IMG/VR virus record: IMGVR_UViG_3300027418_000012
Location: 1 to 54,995 of that record
DNA: 54,995 bases
Direction: 5' to 3' (one strand)
Source: a virus
Lineage: Duplodnaviria; Caudoviricetes
Positions within the stretch are counted from its first letter, which is position 1, and each line of letters opens with the position of its first letter. Below the pieces are notes generated by a model. It was given only the letters and a program-made list of their open reading frames with translations, was not told the DNA's origin and searched no databases. Below are positions 1 through 7,545 of this stretch, one piece after another. The position numbers were made by a program, and so were the translations under genes.

Positions 1-34
1 TGCCTACCCAATCAGACTACCCCACCATAATTAT

Positions 35-53
35 TGACGGGGCTACCCCGTCA
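35..53. promoter_or_regulatory. Perfect GC-rich hairpin TGACGGGG-CTA-CCCCGTCA upstream of first ORF
   Basis: 8-bp perfect inverted repeat with 3-nt loop, 22 nt before ATG at 76. Function is inferred only. Confidence 0.4.
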
Positions 54-75
54 TCACTCGTAAACTCGTTATATT

Positions 76-390
76 ATGGCACAATTATCAATTGCAATGC
101 TTACAGAGCAAGCATTGGGTCAGTTAGACAAACTGACTTTCAACCTTGCCAACGCTGAATGCAGAGCATCAGCTAATGGCAATGTAGGTTTTAAAGTTAA
201 AACCGACCAAGGGAAGGTTATCACCTTCTGGACTTCTACGGCTGACGCAACCGTAAAAGCCCTTGATGACGCTGGAAACTTCCAGGTCATTCCAGGCACC
301 GGTTTGGCGGAAGAGAAACTTCCTGACGGTACCACTGCTTACGGGTTGATTGATAAATCATCAACAGGCCGTAACAGTTTCTGGAAGTAA
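76..390 (+). CDS. Hypothetical phage protein (104 aa), probably early
   Basis: Clean ORF, AT-rich leader, followed by a strong terminator. Confidence 0.75.
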   Translation: MAQLSIAMLTEQALGQLDKLTFNLANAECRASANGNVGFKVKTDQGKVITFWTSTADATVKALDDAGNFQVIPGTGLAEEKLPDGTTAYGLIDKSSTGRNSFWK

Positions 391-400
391 CCTTCCAGAT

Positions 401-432
401 GAGAGAAGACTATATGTCTTCTCTCTTTTTTT
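401..432 (+). terminator. Rho-independent terminator
   Basis: GAGAGAAGAC-TATAT-GTCTTCTCTC followed by T7. Confidence 0.85.
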
Positions 433-611
433 CTGTTACGTAACGTTTAACACGCAGTAGTTTGTAGACAATCTTATAGATTGCATAGTACTTTTCTCTC
501 ATAACTAATTGATTGTGAGAGAGTTAGTGTGTTACAGAAAGACAGGTGCGTATTTCTTAATGTATTTTCTATGCCATATATTCCAATTTTGCAGCGGATA
601 ATATGGCTATA

Positions 612-772
612 ACTAGCAGGTGTTAAGGCTAGTGCGTTCTATAAATACAGTTCTAATCTAAGTAAGACAGATAGACAAGCAAATGATATACCACATACAC
701 TGTGTTATATAGCTTGGAGTTCCTGATTGTACAAACGTAGATAGATTAGTATTGTATATATAGAGGTCACCT
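612..772 (+). ncRNA. Pistol-like self-cleaving ribozyme variant (no P1/AAA linker, extended P3)
   Basis: ACUAGC(612-617)/GCUAGU(628-633); P2 GGUG(619-622)/CACC(768-771); UUAAG(623-627); GCG(634-636); P3 UUCUAUA(637-643)/UAUAGAG(759-765); GU(766-767) at the cleavage position. Confidence 0.6.
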
Positions 773-786
773 AAAAATCTATTATT

Positions 787-978
787 ATGATTATTTTACT
801 TGGTTCTAATTACGACGGGGTTACAGACGTATACCATTTTTACTATCACAACAGTGAAACTAATTGGTATTATGAGATGGCCTGTAGAAACTCATTTGGT
901 ACAGCTGATATGAATTCACGTACTAAAGATATATCAATGGAAGAATTTAAACAACTAGCAGGTGATAGACTTGCTTAG
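787..978 (+). CDS. Hypothetical protein (63 aa)
   Basis: ORF with A-rich leader, directly downstream of the pistol-like element. Confidence 0.6.
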   Translation: MIILLGSNYDGVTDVYHFYYHNSETNWYYEMACRNSFGTADMNSRTKDISMEEFKQLAGDRLA

Positions 979-1099
979 TGTTTACATTTAGCTAAAGTAA
1001 AAACACTACACATCTACAGGGACTATCCTTGATTATCCCCTGGTGTAGACCTTTAAGCAGTAAATCAAGCTATGTTGCTTATTGGACTTTTTCTTATTA

Positions 1100-1163
1100 A
1101 CTCCTCTGAGGGAGTATAAACCGTGTTAGGCTCAGAGCGTCCGTAGTATATCTACGGGGTCAC
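1100..1163 (+). ncRNA. Pistol self-cleaving ribozyme
   Basis: P1 ACUCC(1100-1104)/GGAGU(1111-1115); 6-bp pseudoknot UCUGAG(1105-1110)/CUCAGA(1131-1136); UAAA linker; P2 GUG(1123-1125)/CAC(1161-1163); UUAGG; GCG(1137-1139); P3 UCCGUAG/CUACGGG; G1159-U1160 cleavage site. Matches the pistol consensus order element for element. Confidence 0.88.
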
Positions 1164-1178
1164 CAAAAATCATTAAAC

Positions 1179-1400
1179 ATGAAAAACATCATTAACTACG
1201 TTTGTAGCATCTCTGCCTCTCTGTTGATACTTATCTTCTTAGAAGGACTATTAACGAGAGGTATGGCCTTTAAATTTGAATTGTACGGTATTATAGCTTG
1301 GGTAGCCCAAGTAGTAATTACCATTTTCTTCATTTCTCTTGCTATTCTAATCACTCAATCTGATTTAGAAGACAAAAAACGCAAGACTAGATCATTTTAA
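1179..1400 (+). CDS. Small membrane protein, 2 predicted TM helices (73 aa)
   Basis: Two hydrophobic stretches and a basic C-terminus. Confidence 0.7.
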   Translation: MKNIINYVCSISASLLILIFLEGLLTRGMAFKFELYGIIAWVAQVVITIFFISLAILITQSDLEDKKRKTRSF

Positions 1401-1405
1401 ACACT

Positions 1406-1490
1406 TTCAGGGAGCTCACCAGTGAGCTATAATCATAGTATAGTTTAGTTTATTATACTATGACTAGGGGTCATACATGAGCTCCCTGAA
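1406..1490. ncRNA. Structured intergenic element closed by a 13-bp perfect inverted repeat
   Basis: TTCAGGGAGCTCA(1406-1418)/TGAGCTCCCTGAA(1478-1490); inner TCATAGTATA(1433-1442)/TATACTATGA(1454-1463). Confidence 0.5.
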
Positions 1491-1524
1491 TCTATTACAT
1501 CATCATTTAATCATAATTACACTT

Positions 1525-1950
1525 ATGAAACAAGTTATCACTAGGGATATGCTTCCAAAAATAAAAGCACCCAAATTTAAAGTGGCAGGGTTTATTCTCA
1601 ATGAGTATGAGTTAAGATGCCTAATGCTTGAAACAGCAAAAAACAACATTCAAAGCGGTATTTCCGTTATTGATATGCAAAGCAATCAAAAGGCTTTTAT
1701 ACAAAAAGACGGCAGTTTAACTCAATACATTGGAGAATCATTAAAAATTAATGGCAAATTAGGCTTAGAATTACTTCAACACAGAGTAAGTAAACTTAAC
1801 GAACTAGCACAAATGTTAGATATAAGTCCTATTGAACTCCTTAAAACAGTTAATAAACTGTCTACCGTTGTAAAGTTAGAAGGACTAGAAATGATTAGCA
1901 AGTCTGTAATGGAAACAGTAGCAATTAAAAATAAGAAAAACAAAATTTAA
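1525..1950 (+). CDS. Hypothetical protein
   Basis: ORF 1477..1950. ATG at 1525 preferred because 1477 lies inside the inverted repeat. Confidence 0.65.
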   Translation: MKQVITRDMLPKIKAPKFKVAGFILNEYELRCLMLETAKNNIQSGISVIDMQSNQKAFIQKDGSLTQYIGESLKINGKLGLELLQHRVSKLNELAQMLDISPIELLKTVNKLSTVVKLEGLEMISKSVMETVAIKNKKNKI

Positions 1951-1963
1951 ATCATTTTACACC

Positions 1964-2113
1964 ATGATACGCAAAAAAAACTTAGTCTTCAGGACTTACA
2001 ACCAATTCACAGAATGGTACTTAAAAATGTCTAGAAAGTTCATTAAACTTAAACTTATATACTTAAAACTATTTAGATCAAGTACTTATATAGCTGTTAC
2101 TATCAGCTATTAA
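1964..2113 (+). CDS. Small basic hypothetical protein (49 aa), not in ORF track
   Basis: ATG 1964 to TAA 2113 (MIRKKNLVFRTYNQF...), AT-rich leader. Confidence 0.4.
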   Translation: MIRKKNLVFRTYNQFTEWYLKMSRKFIKLKLIYLKLFRSSTYIAVTISY

Positions 2114-2159
2114 TATATTCTGTAATTGTAATTAAACATTAGTTTCCCCCAAACTAAGT

Positions 2160-2405
2160 AATGACTATGAGCCATTCCCACGCCAAAAGATCACATATTG
2201 TGACTGATAGTAACATCAGATAGGAGTGTAGGGTGTTGCAGGGCTCTGGTCATTTATTAAAGTGCACAATAGATATAACAGTATGGGAATCCATCCCTAC
2301 TAACACAGCTAGCGGACTGTTATACTATGTGCATAATCCATCTATTCCATAAAAACATTATGTAGATGGTGACCCGGAGACTGAAATATGTCAATGGGTG
2401 CCATT
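2160..2405 (+). ncRNA. Cluster of three consecutive structured RNA elements
   Basis: AATGAC/GTCATT plus GAGCC/GGCTC multi-stem (2160-2254); TGCAC-ATAG-TATAACAGT/ACTGTTATA-CTAT-GTGCA (2263-2333); hairpins in 2338-2405. Confidence 0.5.
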
Positions 2406-2447
2406 TATTAAAACCCTTTCATTTTATCACCAATCAATTCATAAAAC

Positions 2448-3032
2448 ATGAAAACTTTCTCAATTAGTGCTCCATGGGACACTAAATCAATTGTCGTTAG
2501 AGTAGAACTAGGTAAATACGCTAACGGTAGAACTAGAATCAATCTTATAGATGATTCTGACAACGAGCCATATTGTACGGCTACAACTAACCTTCCTGAT
2601 GTCTTATTACTAGACAATGAAGTCTTTATCAAAGACTATTCAGAGAACGAAGGCGTATTAGACTTCTTAACTACGAACAACATCGTAATTGCTACAAACA
2701 AATGGGCAACCAGTGGTTTTGTAGATGTACAGGTGTGCACTCTCAATCCTGAATCAGAATGGGGAATGATTCCTAATCTTTATTCAGATGAAGAACCAGA
2801 GTATGACAGTGCTGGCTTTTCTGTATCTGATAGAACTGTAAATCAAGAATTTACAGCTACATTAGAACAAGATGAGCAAAGATATGATGATAAGCATAAC
2901 ACAATGCCACCTCCACCACTTGAAATAGATATGGTGACAGGTAAATGCATGTGGCTTATCAAAGATTATAAAATATGGGCTAATACATATGAAGAAGCTG
3001 TAAAGCATCTTGATGTGATTGAATCATTTTAA
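2448..3032 (+). CDS. Hypothetical phage protein (acidic, 194 aa)
   Basis: Long ORF. The N-terminal PYCTATTNL...VFIKDYSENEG segment resembles widespread phage hypotheticals (DUF4313-like, from memory). Confidence 0.75.
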   Translation: MKTFSISAPWDTKSIVVRVELGKYANGRTRINLIDDSDNEPYCTATTNLPDVLLLDNEVFIKDYSENEGVLDFLTTNNIVIATNKWATSGFVDVQVCTLNPESEWGMIPNLYSDEEPEYDSAGFSVSDRTVNQEFTATLEQDEQRYDDKHNTMPPPPLEIDMVTGKCMWLIKDYKIWANTYEEAVKHLDVIESF

Positions 3033-3041
3033 ATCATTAAC

Positions 3042-3269
3042 ATGAAAAAAGCATTAGAAGTATTATTTGGTATTAGAGAGCCTAAAAAGCTCTCTAAACC
3101 AATTGAACTATCATTTTCTACATTAATTCCTATTAGTAGGCCAGGTATGGGAGAATGGTTCAAAAGATATAACGTGGGCATATTGTCTGATAGACAATCA
3201 ACTAATGTCCAAATTAGAATGGGTAACATCATTAAGTATGTTGATCTACATTCTATAAGAAATTTTTAA
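3042..3269 (+). CDS. Hypothetical protein (75 aa)
   Basis: Co-oriented ORF with typical leader. Confidence 0.65.
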   Translation: MKKALEVLFGIREPKKLSKPIELSFSTLIPISRPGMGEWFKRYNVGILSDRQSTNVQIRMGNIIKYVDLHSIRNF

Positions 3270-3308
3270 TAGGACTTGGACCGGTTCTACTTCACTGAAC
3301 TAGCAGTT

Positions 3309-3343
3309 TGCAGGCTAATCTTTAAAACCTGCAATTTTTATTT
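3309..3343 (+). terminator. Possible terminator hairpin
   Basis: TTGCAGG...CCTGCAA followed by TTTTTATTT. Confidence 0.5.
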
Positions 3344-3381
3344 TAGGTAACAATAATTAATTAATTCATAATCAATCATTT

Positions 3382-4146
3382 ATGAAAAAGCAATCAGATG
3401 CTTCAATTCTAAAGACAATAATGCCTTTAGAAATCTTACGTAAAGACTCCAATAAGAGTCTTGGTATTTTAAACATGGTCAATAGACCAATTGTACCCTC
3501 ACATGTCACCTCTGTAGCTACATCAATTGAGAAAATAGGTCTTATACGACCTGTTGTTGTAGCTAATCTAGACTTAAAAGAGTTTAAAGGAGAATATATT
3601 ATAGACGGACAGCATTTGTTTAATGCTTGTATGAGACTAAACAAACATGTTCCTTATGTAAAAATAGACATAAACTCGGAAGAAGAACTAATAGACATAT
3701 TAGCCAGTCTTAACAATTCATCTAAAGCATGGACATTAAAAGACTATGTACAATCATGGGCATACATACGCTCAGATTTTAGAAAATTAGCTAAATATCG
3801 TCAAACATATGATTTAGAATTAGTAGCAATTGCAGGTATTCTGCATAAGTCTCCTAATATATTTCATTGTATGAACTTAATTAAGAAAGGTGAGCTGGTA
3901 ATTAAAAACGAAGCGGTAGCTGTCAAGGTGATGGAGTATACTAATGATCTATTAGGTGTATTCTACAAGTTTGATAGAAAAAACGCTAGAAAGTTAGTTA
4001 ATGCATATGTACAGTATGTAACAAACACTCATGATTCTTATAATCATAAAAAATTCTTAAATAACATTAACAAGCAGAAAAGTAAATTAGAACTGTTATT
4101 GGCTAATCCCGATGATGTAACTGATTTCTTTAATAAAATGTCTTAA
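3382..4146 (+). CDS. ParB/Sulfiredoxin-like N-terminal domain protein
   Basis: NRP...GLIRPVVV...YIIDGQH motif typical of ParB-like domains, followed by LNNSSKAW. Confidence 0.7.
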   Translation: MKKQSDASILKTIMPLEILRKDSNKSLGILNMVNRPIVPSHVTSVATSIEKIGLIRPVVVANLDLKEFKGEYIIDGQHLFNACMRLNKHVPYVKIDINSEEELIDILASLNNSSKAWTLKDYVQSWAYIRSDFRKLAKYRQTYDLELVAIAGILHKSPNIFHCMNLIKKGELVIKNEAVAVKVMEYTNDLLGVFYKFDRKNARKLVNAYVQYVTNTHDSYNHKKFLNNINKQKSKLELLLANPDDVTDFFNKMS

Positions 4147-4155
4147 TGTTATTAA

Positions 4156-4350
4156 ACTCGGTGAGACTAGCATGTGCTAGTATGGGTACTCTCTTACCCG
4201 AACCATAGATGCAAGACTGATCAACTATGAGATGCTGCAGATGAAAACTGGACGTTCTTAACTGAACTAGTAAGATGGCTGCCGTGATGGGGGCATACCA
4301 AAGAGACTACTGCATTAGCTAACGCTTCATAAGCCAGCACCGTTTTGAGT
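4156..4350 (+). ncRNA. Large multi-stem structured RNA (~195 nt) with possible pseudoknot
   Basis: Closing ACTC-GGTG/CACC-GAGT; hairpins ACTAGCA/TGCTAGT and GGGTA/TACCC; nested TATGA/TCATA, TGCAG/CTGCA, TCTTA/TAAGA, TGCC/GGCA; loop TCTCT(4190-4194) complementary to AGAGA(4302-4306). Confidence 0.55.
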
Positions 4351-4457
4351 AGTATTGACTGAACCTGACAGCACAGCTGTTCAGATGTAGGGAACTTCAA
4401 CACAATCAGTACGTTAAGCTGATTATTTTTATTAATCATTCATTAAATATAAAAACC

Positions 4458-4853
4458 ATGTCAAAAAAATTGACACCAACTATTGCCAAAGCATTGGCAG
4501 AGAAAGTACGAGCTGAACTAGTAGTTCGTCACAAAGGAAGCACTGAAACCATTACCAAAAAGGTTGAGTCTTCTAAACTCTATAAAGAGTTAATACTAAC
4601 CATCAAGAAAATTGATGAGCTTGACGAGAAAAAACAAGTTCTTAGAAAAGAAATAGAGGAGAATTTATCTACAAAAATGTATGATGTAGGTGTATCAGCT
4701 TATCACTCTACACCACATATATCTGTCAACTATCGTTCTGCATTCTCAGTGGAGAGTATTAAAGATATGATCTTGATAGAAGACTATATGTCTGAAGACG
4801 CAAAAACTCCAGAAGAGTTTGTCAAATTTATTGCTGATAAATTATCTAAATAG
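4458..4853 (+). CDS. Hypothetical protein (coiled-coil, 131 aa)
   Basis: ORF with A-rich leader. Confidence 0.75.
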   Translation: MSKKLTPTIAKALAEKVRAELVVRHKGSTETITKKVESSKLYKELILTIKKIDELDEKKQVLRKEIEENLSTKMYDVGVSAYHSTPHISVNYRSAFSVESIKDMILIEDYMSEDAKTPEEFVKFIADKLSK

Positions 4854-4860
4854 CAATTAT

Positions 4861-5037
4861 ATGACAATTGAACAACTGAATAGGCTGCTAAATGCAGCTT
4901 GTGAAATCATTACAGCATTAGAAGAGCATGCTGATGAATCATTAAAAGAAGATATTGATGCTTTCTTTAATGAAATTAAATATTCTGATGATATAAAAGA
5001 CGAAATTGATCATTATGAATTGGGTGGTGAAGCATAA
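4861..5037 (+). CDS. Small acidic hypothetical protein
   Basis: ATG at 4861 just after the previous stop. Confidence 0.6.
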   Translation: MTIEQLNRLLNAACEIITALEEHADESLKEDIDAFFNEIKYSDDIKDEIDHYELGGEA

Positions 5038-5068
5038 GTAATTAATAACAATTTAAAAACAATTTACC

Positions 5069-5416
5069 GTGAGTAAAAAATTAATCAAAGGTGTACAAAC
5101 AGCATTTGTTGCTGACATCAAAGCAGGAGTAAAAACAGAAGTATTAGTAAGTAAATATGGCTTTCCTAATAGAGGCAAGTTATATCAAACTATGTACTAT
5201 TTAAGAAAAACAGGTGTATTACCTAAAAGAAAGCATAAAACAGCTAAGAAAGTTGTTAAGCCTGTAATGACACAAACTAAAACTGTAGACAATACAGCGT
5301 CTATAAACAATTTTAGAACTGTGTTTTTCCAAGACTTTTCTGTGCAGATTCATAAGAAAGCTAATTCAAGAGTGGTATTGGATGAGAACAACAACGTCCA
5401 TATTTTAAACAACTAA
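5069..5416 (+). CDS. Basic hypothetical protein, possible HTH DNA-binding
   Basis: GTG start, helical N-terminal half, Lys-rich linker. Confidence 0.65.
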   Translation: MSKKLIKGVQTAFVADIKAGVKTEVLVSKYGFPNRGKLYQTMYYLRKTGVLPKRKHKTAKKVVKPVMTQTKTVDNTASINNFRTVFFQDFSVQIHKKANSRVVLDENNNVHILNN

Positions 5417-5427
5417 AAGTTAACCGT

Positions 5428-6030
5428 ATGTTATTTAAACAACGAGGATTTAACCACGAAGAAGAGATCTTTCATAGAGCTCTTAGCATAAGTGATGACG
5501 TTAAAAACATAGTAAGAGAGAAAATATTCTTCTCATGTTTTTGTAACGGATTACAAGCTATGGACTTGTTTGAAGACATAAATGACGCTCCAAGATCATT
5601 GTCTACAGTGACAGGTGATCTAGAAAAGTGTTTAGAAATGACTGATGGTCATGAAGAATATGAATATGCTTTACTGTGTTTCACTATGTATCAGAGACTT
5701 ACTAAACCTATTTTAGCAGATTATAAAATGCAGAATAGTACAGATCCTGAAGATAGAGAAGCTAGATTAAAACATAGAATTATAGAAGCTATTATGGAAT
5801 TAAAGCGTGAAGCTGATAGAGCTGAGTCTGATGAAGACAGTGATTATCCTGATGAAGAAAAGGGACCATTTGCTGTTAATCAAGAAAGAATGCTGACACG
5901 TTTAACATACATAAAAAAATCTAAGTATAACTTCAATACATATATGAATTTGATGAGAGGTGTTAAAAGCACTAAATCAGATTTTGATATAGATGGAATG
6001 TTAGGAAATATAATGAAAGGTGATGATTAG
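5428..6030 (+). CDS. Hypothetical protein (200 aa)
   Basis: Long ORF followed by terminator. Confidence 0.75.
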   Translation: MLFKQRGFNHEEEIFHRALSISDDVKNIVREKIFFSCFCNGLQAMDLFEDINDAPRSLSTVTGDLEKCLEMTDGHEEYEYALLCFTMYQRLTKPILADYKMQNSTDPEDREARLKHRIIEAIMELKREADRAESDEDSDYPDEEKGPFAVNQERMLTRLTYIKKSKYNFNTYMNLMRGVKSTKSDFDIDGMLGNIMKGDD

Positions 6031-7058: not shown

Positions 7059-7482
7059 GGGGCCGTATTGGTTTTGACAGATATGAGGAAGGTAGTATCA
7101 CATGTAAGCCTTGGAACAGGTAAACAAGTTCTAAACAATAACCGTAAAGAGTCAATCTGAGCGTGTTGCAGAAGGTGAAGCTATCTTAGCTTCTATCTTT
7201 GCTTCTGAGTATGCATTAGCAGCTTAGGCAACTGGGTGGTAACAACCTGGAAACAGAAAGTTACAAATGTTTTCTCTGTTATGTCAAAACAGAGTGGTGG
7301 ATGGTAAGCAGAACCTGCGTACCCCAATTTACTGATCAAGATGAAGCTTCGGACTGTAGTAAATACGCAAGCTTGAAACATAGGAAACGCTACAGCAAAT
7401 TCCTATATCAAATAGATCTAAGCATGTAAGAACGGTATTATTGTCACGTATTTGGACAGGGGTTCAACTCCCCTCGGCTCCA
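7059..7482 (+). ncRNA. ssrA: tmRNA (transfer-messenger RNA)
   Basis: 5' GGGGCCG...TTTTGAC; 3' GACAGGGGTTCAACTCCCCTCGGCTCCA T-arm and acceptor with G3-U70 Ala identity pair; tag ORF 7144-7227 VKSQSERVAEGEAILASIFASEYALAA*; CCA not encoded. Confidence 0.95.
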
Positions 7483-7545
7483 CACATTAAAAACAACATT
7501 ATGAGAGGTAGTAAATATCCTTATTATAAACAAAAAAACAACCAT

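Follow-up and report, generated by a model that had tools for sequence, protein, structure and literature searches.

A probable reduced pistol ribozyme lacking P1 and the A-rich linker in a phage leader, with a covarying family of P1-less relatives

Positions 612-771 (+) of a phage record probably encode a natural reduced pistol self-cleaving ribozyme that has neither P1, one of the three stems of pistol, nor the A-rich linker and is predicted to cut the leader in which it lies. The motif is real and non-random, and it is part of a conserved family with covariation. The window, that is, the whole stretch of DNA analysed, is a virus record of 54,995 bases that is ~42% complete and has a G+C content of 33-34%. 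Pistol belongs to the small number of self-cleaving ribozyme classes known from nature and serves as a tool of synthetic biology. P1 and the A-rich linker are part of the pistol consensus, of the crystal structures and of the Rfam model, and mutagenesis has singled out P1 as important.

The core elements of pistol occur at 612-771 in pistol order, as claimed in a preliminary description of this DNA, and all coordinates that we checked agree with the sequence. The 5′ strand of the pseudoknot, ACUAGC (612-617), is the exact complement of 628-633, and its 6/6 pairs are kept in 14/14 family members with four different pair sets. In canonical pistols this strand forms the P1 loop. A single spacer, A618, follows and occupies the site of the canonical P1 3′ strand and A-rich linker. 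The P2 5′ strand GGUG (619-622) pairs with 768-771, with compensatory changes at 4/4 P2 pairs across the family. Next come the UUAAG turn (623-627), which is the catalytic-core loop between P2 and the pseudoknot and aligns with UUAgG of the Rfam consensus, the pseudoknot 3′ strand GCUAGU (628-633), an exact reverse complement of 612-617, and the conserved GCG (634-636), the same as the GCG in the Rfam consensus. Following the pistol literature, we take the first G of this triplet, G634, to be the general base. P3 occupies 129 nt (637-765) and is followed by the predicted scissile G/U junction (766-767), the 2 nt between P3 and P2′, which reads GU in 14/14 members. The P2 3′ strand CACC (768-771), the exact complement of 619-622, closes the element, and an A/U-rich leader (772-786) precedes an ORF of 63 aa (787-978, +) with no PHROG match.

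The element has the 6-bp pseudoknot helix, P2, UUA(R)G and GCG of pistol, a P3 that starts directly after GCG and opens with U-G, and a junction of exactly 2 nt. A P1 hairpin with the pseudoknot strand in its loop is absent, as A618 alone leaves no room for a P1 3′ strand, and so is the A-rich linker, which is AUAAA in the Rfam consensus and lies between P1 and P2. The one-nucleotide joint of the 6-bp strand to P2 that had been noted earlier is A618, and a spacer of the same length recurs in 14/14 members. A P3 of ~22 bp enclosing 661-741 had also been proposed; folding P3 alone reproduced it, giving ~22 basal bp around an irregular distal insert (661-741). The basal helices in this fold are 638-643/759-764 (plus U637-G765), 645-651/751-757 and 653-660/742-749. 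The P3 fold has a free energy of -30.7 kcal/mol (z -3.43), and equally good folds occurred in 0/200 shuffles. The whole stretch 565-790 folds unexceptionally (z -1.47), with 18/200 shuffles folding equally well. The signal is therefore the arrangement of motifs together with P3, rather than the overall fold stability of 565-790.

A strict descriptor of the P1-less layout (pseudoknot of 6 bp, spacer of 0-3 nt, P2 of 4 bp, TTARG, GCG, P3 of at least 4 bp, GT and P2′) gave one match in the window, both strands included, against 0 in 200 shuffles. A relaxed version matched only the 612-771 element and a canonical pistol copy further downstream. The individual motifs are short and the 565-790 fold is unexceptional, features that a chance arrangement in AT-rich phage DNA would also show; given the descriptor result and the 13 further distinct sequences with covariation described below, such an accident is scarcely credible.

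The canonical pistol ribozyme lies at 1100-1164 (+) and matches Rfam RF02679 with 47.3 bits (cut-off 34.5). Its P2, core, GGUCACC and leader are nearly the same as those of the 612-771 element. The U of its junction is U1160, and an ATG at 1179, 19 nt later, opens ORF 1179-1400; at 612-771 the ATG at 787 comes 20 nt after U767, so that the similar spacing claimed for the two copies is borne out. ORF 1179-1400 encodes 73 aa and is hydrophobic. The window has two pistol-type elements within 500 nt, each preceding a small ORF.

A search for covarying homologs had been proposed in the preliminary description; pattern scans recovered 13 further distinct P1-less elements with compensatory changes in viral and metagenome contigs, making 14 sequences with the window. 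The complete relatives are L015 (45 nt), L208, L292, L469, L197, L336, L116, L296, L128, L150, L187, L302 (79 nt) and L104 (206 nt, with a long P3); L153 is an additional P1-less copy that is incomplete at its contig end. The layout shared by the 14 members is a pseudoknot strand, exactly 1 nt, and then P2. The spacer letter is A in 11 members, G in two and U in one, and both the U-G pair at the start of P3 and the GU junction are present in 14/14. The GU junction is also found in L292, L296, L302, L336 and L469, which were retrieved with patterns not containing GU. The flanks of the members are unrelated by blastn, except for three duplicate or near-duplicate pairs and one match between the window and L116. 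The latter spans 42 nt and lies within 400 nt downstream, where both hold a canonical pistol.

The pattern scans used IUPAC codes and were run on collections of viral, metagenome and genome sequences. Since every pattern demanded UUAAG and GCG, the constancy of these letters in the relatives carries no independent weight, and members with other core letters would be missed. Variable-gap scans can also miss matches at storage-chunk borders; an element in G003 fits two of the patterns and is absent from the results of both. Three doubtful single matches with other gaps (L309, gap 8; L474, gap 7; L462, gap 8) were kept out of the family, as were the GC-rich L156 and L161, which are without a pseudoknot partner. 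Among GTDB bacterial and archaeal genomes, the P1-less layout was present in 0/31 pattern matches. Megablast of window positions 1-6000 against cultured phages gave no match. A 47-nt blastn query returned just 21-nt matches (E=3) in three Fusobacterium phages, and these were taken as chance. A protein-based search for relatives with the ParB-like ORF 3382-4146 yielded one distant locus, L158.

We next consider covariation, with pairs counted on end-anchored blocks of the 14 sequences because a MAFFT alignment of the 14 misplaced the 3′ ends of three short members. In this set, standard pairs account for 98.5% of 196 pair cells, and both-side (compensatory) changes are seen at 10/14 pairs in 32 cells. 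On every measure, the observed pairing and covariation values were reached by 0/1000 shuffles. Consistent with this, a count on a 13-sequence MAFFT alignment gave 98.2% paired cells and 8 pairs with both-side changes (0/500 shuffles), and sliding the partners by 1-3 columns in that alignment reduced pairing to 23-49%. The pseudoknot occurs as four pair sets (ACUAGC/GCUAGU, ACUAGG/CCUAGU, ACUGGC/GCCAGU and GCAAGG/CCUUGU). P2 occurs as seven (GGUG/CACC, GGGC/GCCC, GGGG/CCCC, GAGG/CCUC, GGGU/ACCC, AGGG/CCCU, and GGUG with different neighbours). At the base of P3 the first pair is U-G in 14/14, and pairs 2-4 covary.

These covariation tests do not depend on the way in which the sequences were retrieved. 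The pseudoknot 5′ strand was left out of three search patterns, P2′ was left out of two, and P3 was specified by at most one or two letters. In every match from the patterns without the pseudoknot 5′ strand, that strand pairs 6/6. Five new P2 sets came from the patterns without P2′ (GGGC/GCCC, GGGG/CCCC, GAGG/CCUC, GGGU/ACCC and AGGG/CCCU); all of them pair 4/4, each after a P3 hairpin and GU. Homologs with covariation in the pseudoknot, P2 and the base of P3, whose absence was to have counted against the proposal, are thus on record in the 13 further elements, and the family of 14 supports the earlier inference of a minimal pistol.

The origin of the element is suggested by L321, a canonical pistol (45.2 bits). 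Its upstream flank shows homology to the flanks of both the window element and the P1-less L150, and its P3 base (UUCUAU...AUAGAG), CACC and leader resemble those of the window element. The presence of a canonical pistol in this homologous flank suggests that the window element arose from a pistol by loss of the P1 strands plus the linker. The canonical pistols L318, L290 and L303 have the same P3 base as the window and their own inserts of 42-75 nt, so the long P3 reflects ordinary variation, unconnected with P1 loss. The first P2 pair differs, with GGUG in the window element versus CGUG in its canonical neighbours, and the loss of P1 and linker looks to have been accompanied by a strengthening of this pair.

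Descent from a canonical pistol raises the alternative that the element is a decayed, catalytically dead remnant whose P1 and linker were deleted and which persists in the leader. The canonical pistol at the homologous locus in L321 would fit such decay, as would the lowered activity of canonical pistol on P1 disruption (PMC4604425). However, 98.5% pairing with compensatory changes in 10/14 pairs among 14 sequences with mostly unrelated flanks, together with a 1-nt spacer, a U-G first P3 pair and a GU junction that are fixed in 14/14, argues against a dead remnant, which we regard as unlikely. For the family as a whole, we lean on balance towards P1-less pistols being an active, selected minimal class, down to 45 nt in length, that occurs in aquatic and other phages and is missed entirely by current models.

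It was suggested at the outset that standard covariance models may miss this form, and the Rfam model does. The Rfam Pistol model found only the canonical copy at 1100-1164 in the window and had no match to 540-820 even at E<=10. Its gathering cut-off of 34.5 bits was reached by 0/12 P1-less relatives, whose scores were 30.7 (the best), 29.4, 26.9 and 20.3 bits, with 8/12 giving no match at E<=10. The matches to P1-less relatives start at model position 22-24, or arise by forcing the flank; partial matches from model position 22-24 to 68 were obtained for L336, L157, L208 and G001. A covariance model, R1, built from 11 short members without the window, placed its top window match at 612 (31.7 bits, E 5.5e-7) and its second at the canonical copy (12.6 bits). 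R1 aligned just the 5′ half of the window element correctly and set a false 3′ end because P3 is long. L129 (G004:C1:34099-34157), a pistol of canonical type, has a long P3, reads AU rather than GU at the junction and scored 18.8 bits. L208 has, at 6-57 (+), a second but weak pistol-like match that spans the full model (20.8 bits), ~450 nt upstream of the P1-less element.

In a spacing census that left the gap between the pseudoknot strands free at 5-30 nt, the pseudoknot class ACUAGN gave 59 matches, with 8 at gap 6 (P1-less), 48 at gaps 15-19 (canonical) and singles at 8, 27 and 30. In the class ACUGGN, gap 6 was found in 2/14 matches. Besides 6, the only short gaps were 7-8, represented by the three doubtful single matches, and canonical gaps ran from 15 up. 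Spacing is thus bimodal, with the P1-less form standing apart as a separate state whose spacer is always 1 nt. The P1-less spacing was present in 0 among the 127 matches listed for the most frequent pseudoknot class, UCUGRG/CYCAGA; the variant may accordingly belong to one or a few lineages and not be a general solution. Two of the UCUGRG/CYCAGA matches listed, L348 and L381, have a 2-bp P1 (GG/CC) and a 4-nt linker in place of the canonical ~5 bp and 6-7 nt. The same module that is missing from the window element is shortened in these two, yet a token P1 and linker are kept. L381 passes the Rfam cut-off with 37.2 bits, and L348 falls below it with 28.9 bits. L348 and L381 are intermediates between the canonical and P1-less forms and, together with the gap-6 forms, they indicate that P1 reduction is stepwise in nature.

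Could another helix stand in for P1? A hairpin, GCCAUAU/AUAUGGC, had been described at 573-607, where P1 could stack; it does form in the MFE fold, and the comparative data lend it no support as a P1 stand-in. The homologous flanks of L150 and L321 do not contain its 5′ arm. A predicted hairpin ending <=7 nt upstream is found at 10/13 P1-less loci versus 110/151 canonical pistols, and several of the hairpins upstream of P1-less members are terminator-like with U-runs, at distances of 1-12 nt. An active pistol in which the 573-607 hairpin stacks on the pseudoknot helix as a strand-permuted P1 would agree with the existence of this hairpin, with the polarity of its 3′ strand, which would enter the pseudoknot strand as a P1 5′ strand does, and with the upstream hairpins of the 10/13 members. 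Against such a permutation, the P1-less group shows no enrichment of upstream hairpins over canonical pistols, which have their own P1, the 5′ arm is not retained in the two homologous flanks, and the upstream hairpins are in several cases terminator-like and lie at variable distances. We consider it quite unlikely and, given the lack of conservation and enrichment, treat the hairpin as incidental; upstream hairpins as P1 surrogates were rejected in general. A helix between the 5′ and 3′ flanks in place of P1 was rejected as well, since the longest complementary run averages 4.9 nt versus 5.0 nt for mismatched partners. Another hairpin, at 401-425 upstream of the ribozyme region, is terminator-like.

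Every member is encoded on the same strand as the gene that follows it. In 9/15 family loci, an ORF of >=30 aa with an ATG start opens 13-19 nt downstream of P2′. At L292 and L302, tRNA genes on the same strand follow the P1-less element instead of an ORF. The L292 tRNA (36-106, -) is downstream of its P1-less pistol, and the L302 tRNAs (689-762 and 857-939, +) are ~110 nt from theirs. These arrangements recall other phage ribozymes next to tRNAs. Such a location, 13-19 nt ahead of start codons, could also be expected of a translational element, for instance a conserved non-catalytic pseudoknot controlling translation or stability that merely resembles the pistol core. On the other hand, all pistol core letters and the 2-nt junction are kept, the element has direct positional homology to a canonical pistol, and L336, L157, L208 and G001 give partial Rfam Pistol matches. 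A non-catalytic leader is therefore very unlikely.

Based on these data, we propose a probable scheme for the reduced pistol. The former pseudoknot helix 612-617/628-633 would be left as a plain local hairpin whose 10-nt loop carries the spacer, the P2 strand GGUG and the UUAAG turn. Pairing of GGUG with CACC (768-771) beyond P3 would rebuild the pistol core as an H-type pseudoknot, in which GCG (634-636) and the G766/U767 junction would keep the positions that they have in pistols. From the sequence we infer catalysis, a cut site and a role in mRNA 5′-end processing. The RNA would be transcribed within the 5′ leader of ORF 787-978 and is predicted to cut itself between G766 and U767, which would release an mRNA with a 5′-OH and an A/U-rich leader of 20 nt. 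A like product is predicted for ORF 1179-1400 from the canonical copy at 1100-1164. Leader self-cleavage that leaves a 5′-OH mRNA with a short A/U-rich leader, as presumed for canonical pistols of the same genomes, would be the likeliest role.

RNA-library contigs from four runs cover 427-642, 501-613, 792-1087, 992-1084, 1164-1393, 1175-1400 and 1180-1400 within 400-1400; none crosses 766/767 or 1159/1160, and the contigs are short and low-depth, with scattered ends, and possibly include DNA.

The window, G004 and the record containing L153 and L319 each combine a P1-less element with a canonical pistol. G004 has the same tandem as the window, with the P1-less L116 followed by the canonical-type L129, and on the contig with L153 and L319 the canonical copy is ~2.4 kb upstream of the P1-less one. 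A motif, GCGGATAA(G/T)AT(A/G)GCTATA, is conserved directly 5′ of the ribozyme at window positions 590-611 and at L150, L321 and L319. It precedes canonical and P1-less ribozymes alike in several related phages, and could be a phage promoter or another signal. Downstream of the canonical copy, a long and very stable hairpin without an Rfam family lies at 1406-1490 (+; -44.2 kcal/mol, z -7.8, 0/200 shuffles). The hairpin, whose 3′ arm includes the ATG at 1477 of ORF 1477-1950, could block translation or serve as a processing site. The phage record also contains a tmRNA gene at 7059-7485 (+, 88.3 bits).

How a pistol could dispense with P1 is suggested by structures. In solved pistols, the pseudoknot helix is stacked between P1 and P3 with P2 alongside, and the linker makes A-minor triples in the P1 minor groove (PMC11300833 and PMC6154101). 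These triples make P1 and the linker interacting partners, which are lost together in the window element. P1 and linker would be a lateral module, branching off the core where the pseudoknot strand has its 3′ end and rejoining it where P2 begins, so that a 1-nt bridge can replace both. The junction between P3 and P2′, usually GU in pistols and retained in the window element, is of strictly conserved length in pistols (PMC4604425). The main ground for caution is that a mutation disrupting P1 in a canonical pistol caused a substantial loss of activity (Harris 2015, PMC4604425), from which it follows that loss of P1 is not obviously neutral. An unpaired P1 in a canonical RNA is different from a clean deletion of P1. 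The A-rich linker that is absent here holds highly conserved nucleotides of the pistol class, and this counts against the reduced-pistol reading.

If the reduced-pistol reading is true, P1 and the A-minor linker would be a detachable stabilising module outside the catalytic fold, and pistol architecture would be a series running from full P1 through a 2-bp P1 to no P1. The true minimal catalytic core would then be defined at ~45 nt, which would give engineers a compact scaffold. The conserved siting of the elements, 18-24 nt ahead of a start codon or else upstream of tRNA genes, would point to a general use by phages in setting short leaders with a 5′-OH, adding data on why phages put self-cleaving RNAs immediately upstream of small genes. 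There would also be a blind spot in annotation, as the variant makes up 8/59 matches in ACUAGN and 2/14 in ACUGGN, with none passing Rfam.

We found no report of a pistol without P1 in the full texts searched, a set outside which the original discovery and crystal-structure papers fall. Among known systems, the element is closest in its features to pistol RF02679, with which it shares the 6-bp pseudoknot, P2, UUA(R)G, GCG, the U-G-opened P3 and the 2-nt GU junction, as well as siting in phage leaders just before ORFs and positional homology to the canonical L321. In contrast to RF02679, it has no P1 and no A-rich linker, and the pseudoknot strand joins P2 through one nucleotide. The 'pseudoknot' helix becomes a simple hairpin that holds P2 in its loop, members can be as short as 45 nt, and P1-less elements fall below or outside Rfam detection. 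The pseudoknot-containing hammerhead has the helix connectivity and fold of pistol, including the stem with its linker A-minor triple (PMC11300833). However, that ribozyme has a hammerhead core and mechanism, whereas the window element has pistol core letters and is without that stem. Natural twisters without optional stems exist (PMC6154101), and phages carry minimal HDV-like theta ribozymes (PMC10879173). Both set a precedent for dispensable peripheral helices and trimmed phage variants; their folds and chemistries differ, and the comparison is an analogy only. We rate the window element as pistol-like and apparently pistol-derived, yet departing from pistol as curated in P1, in the linker and in the Rfam score.
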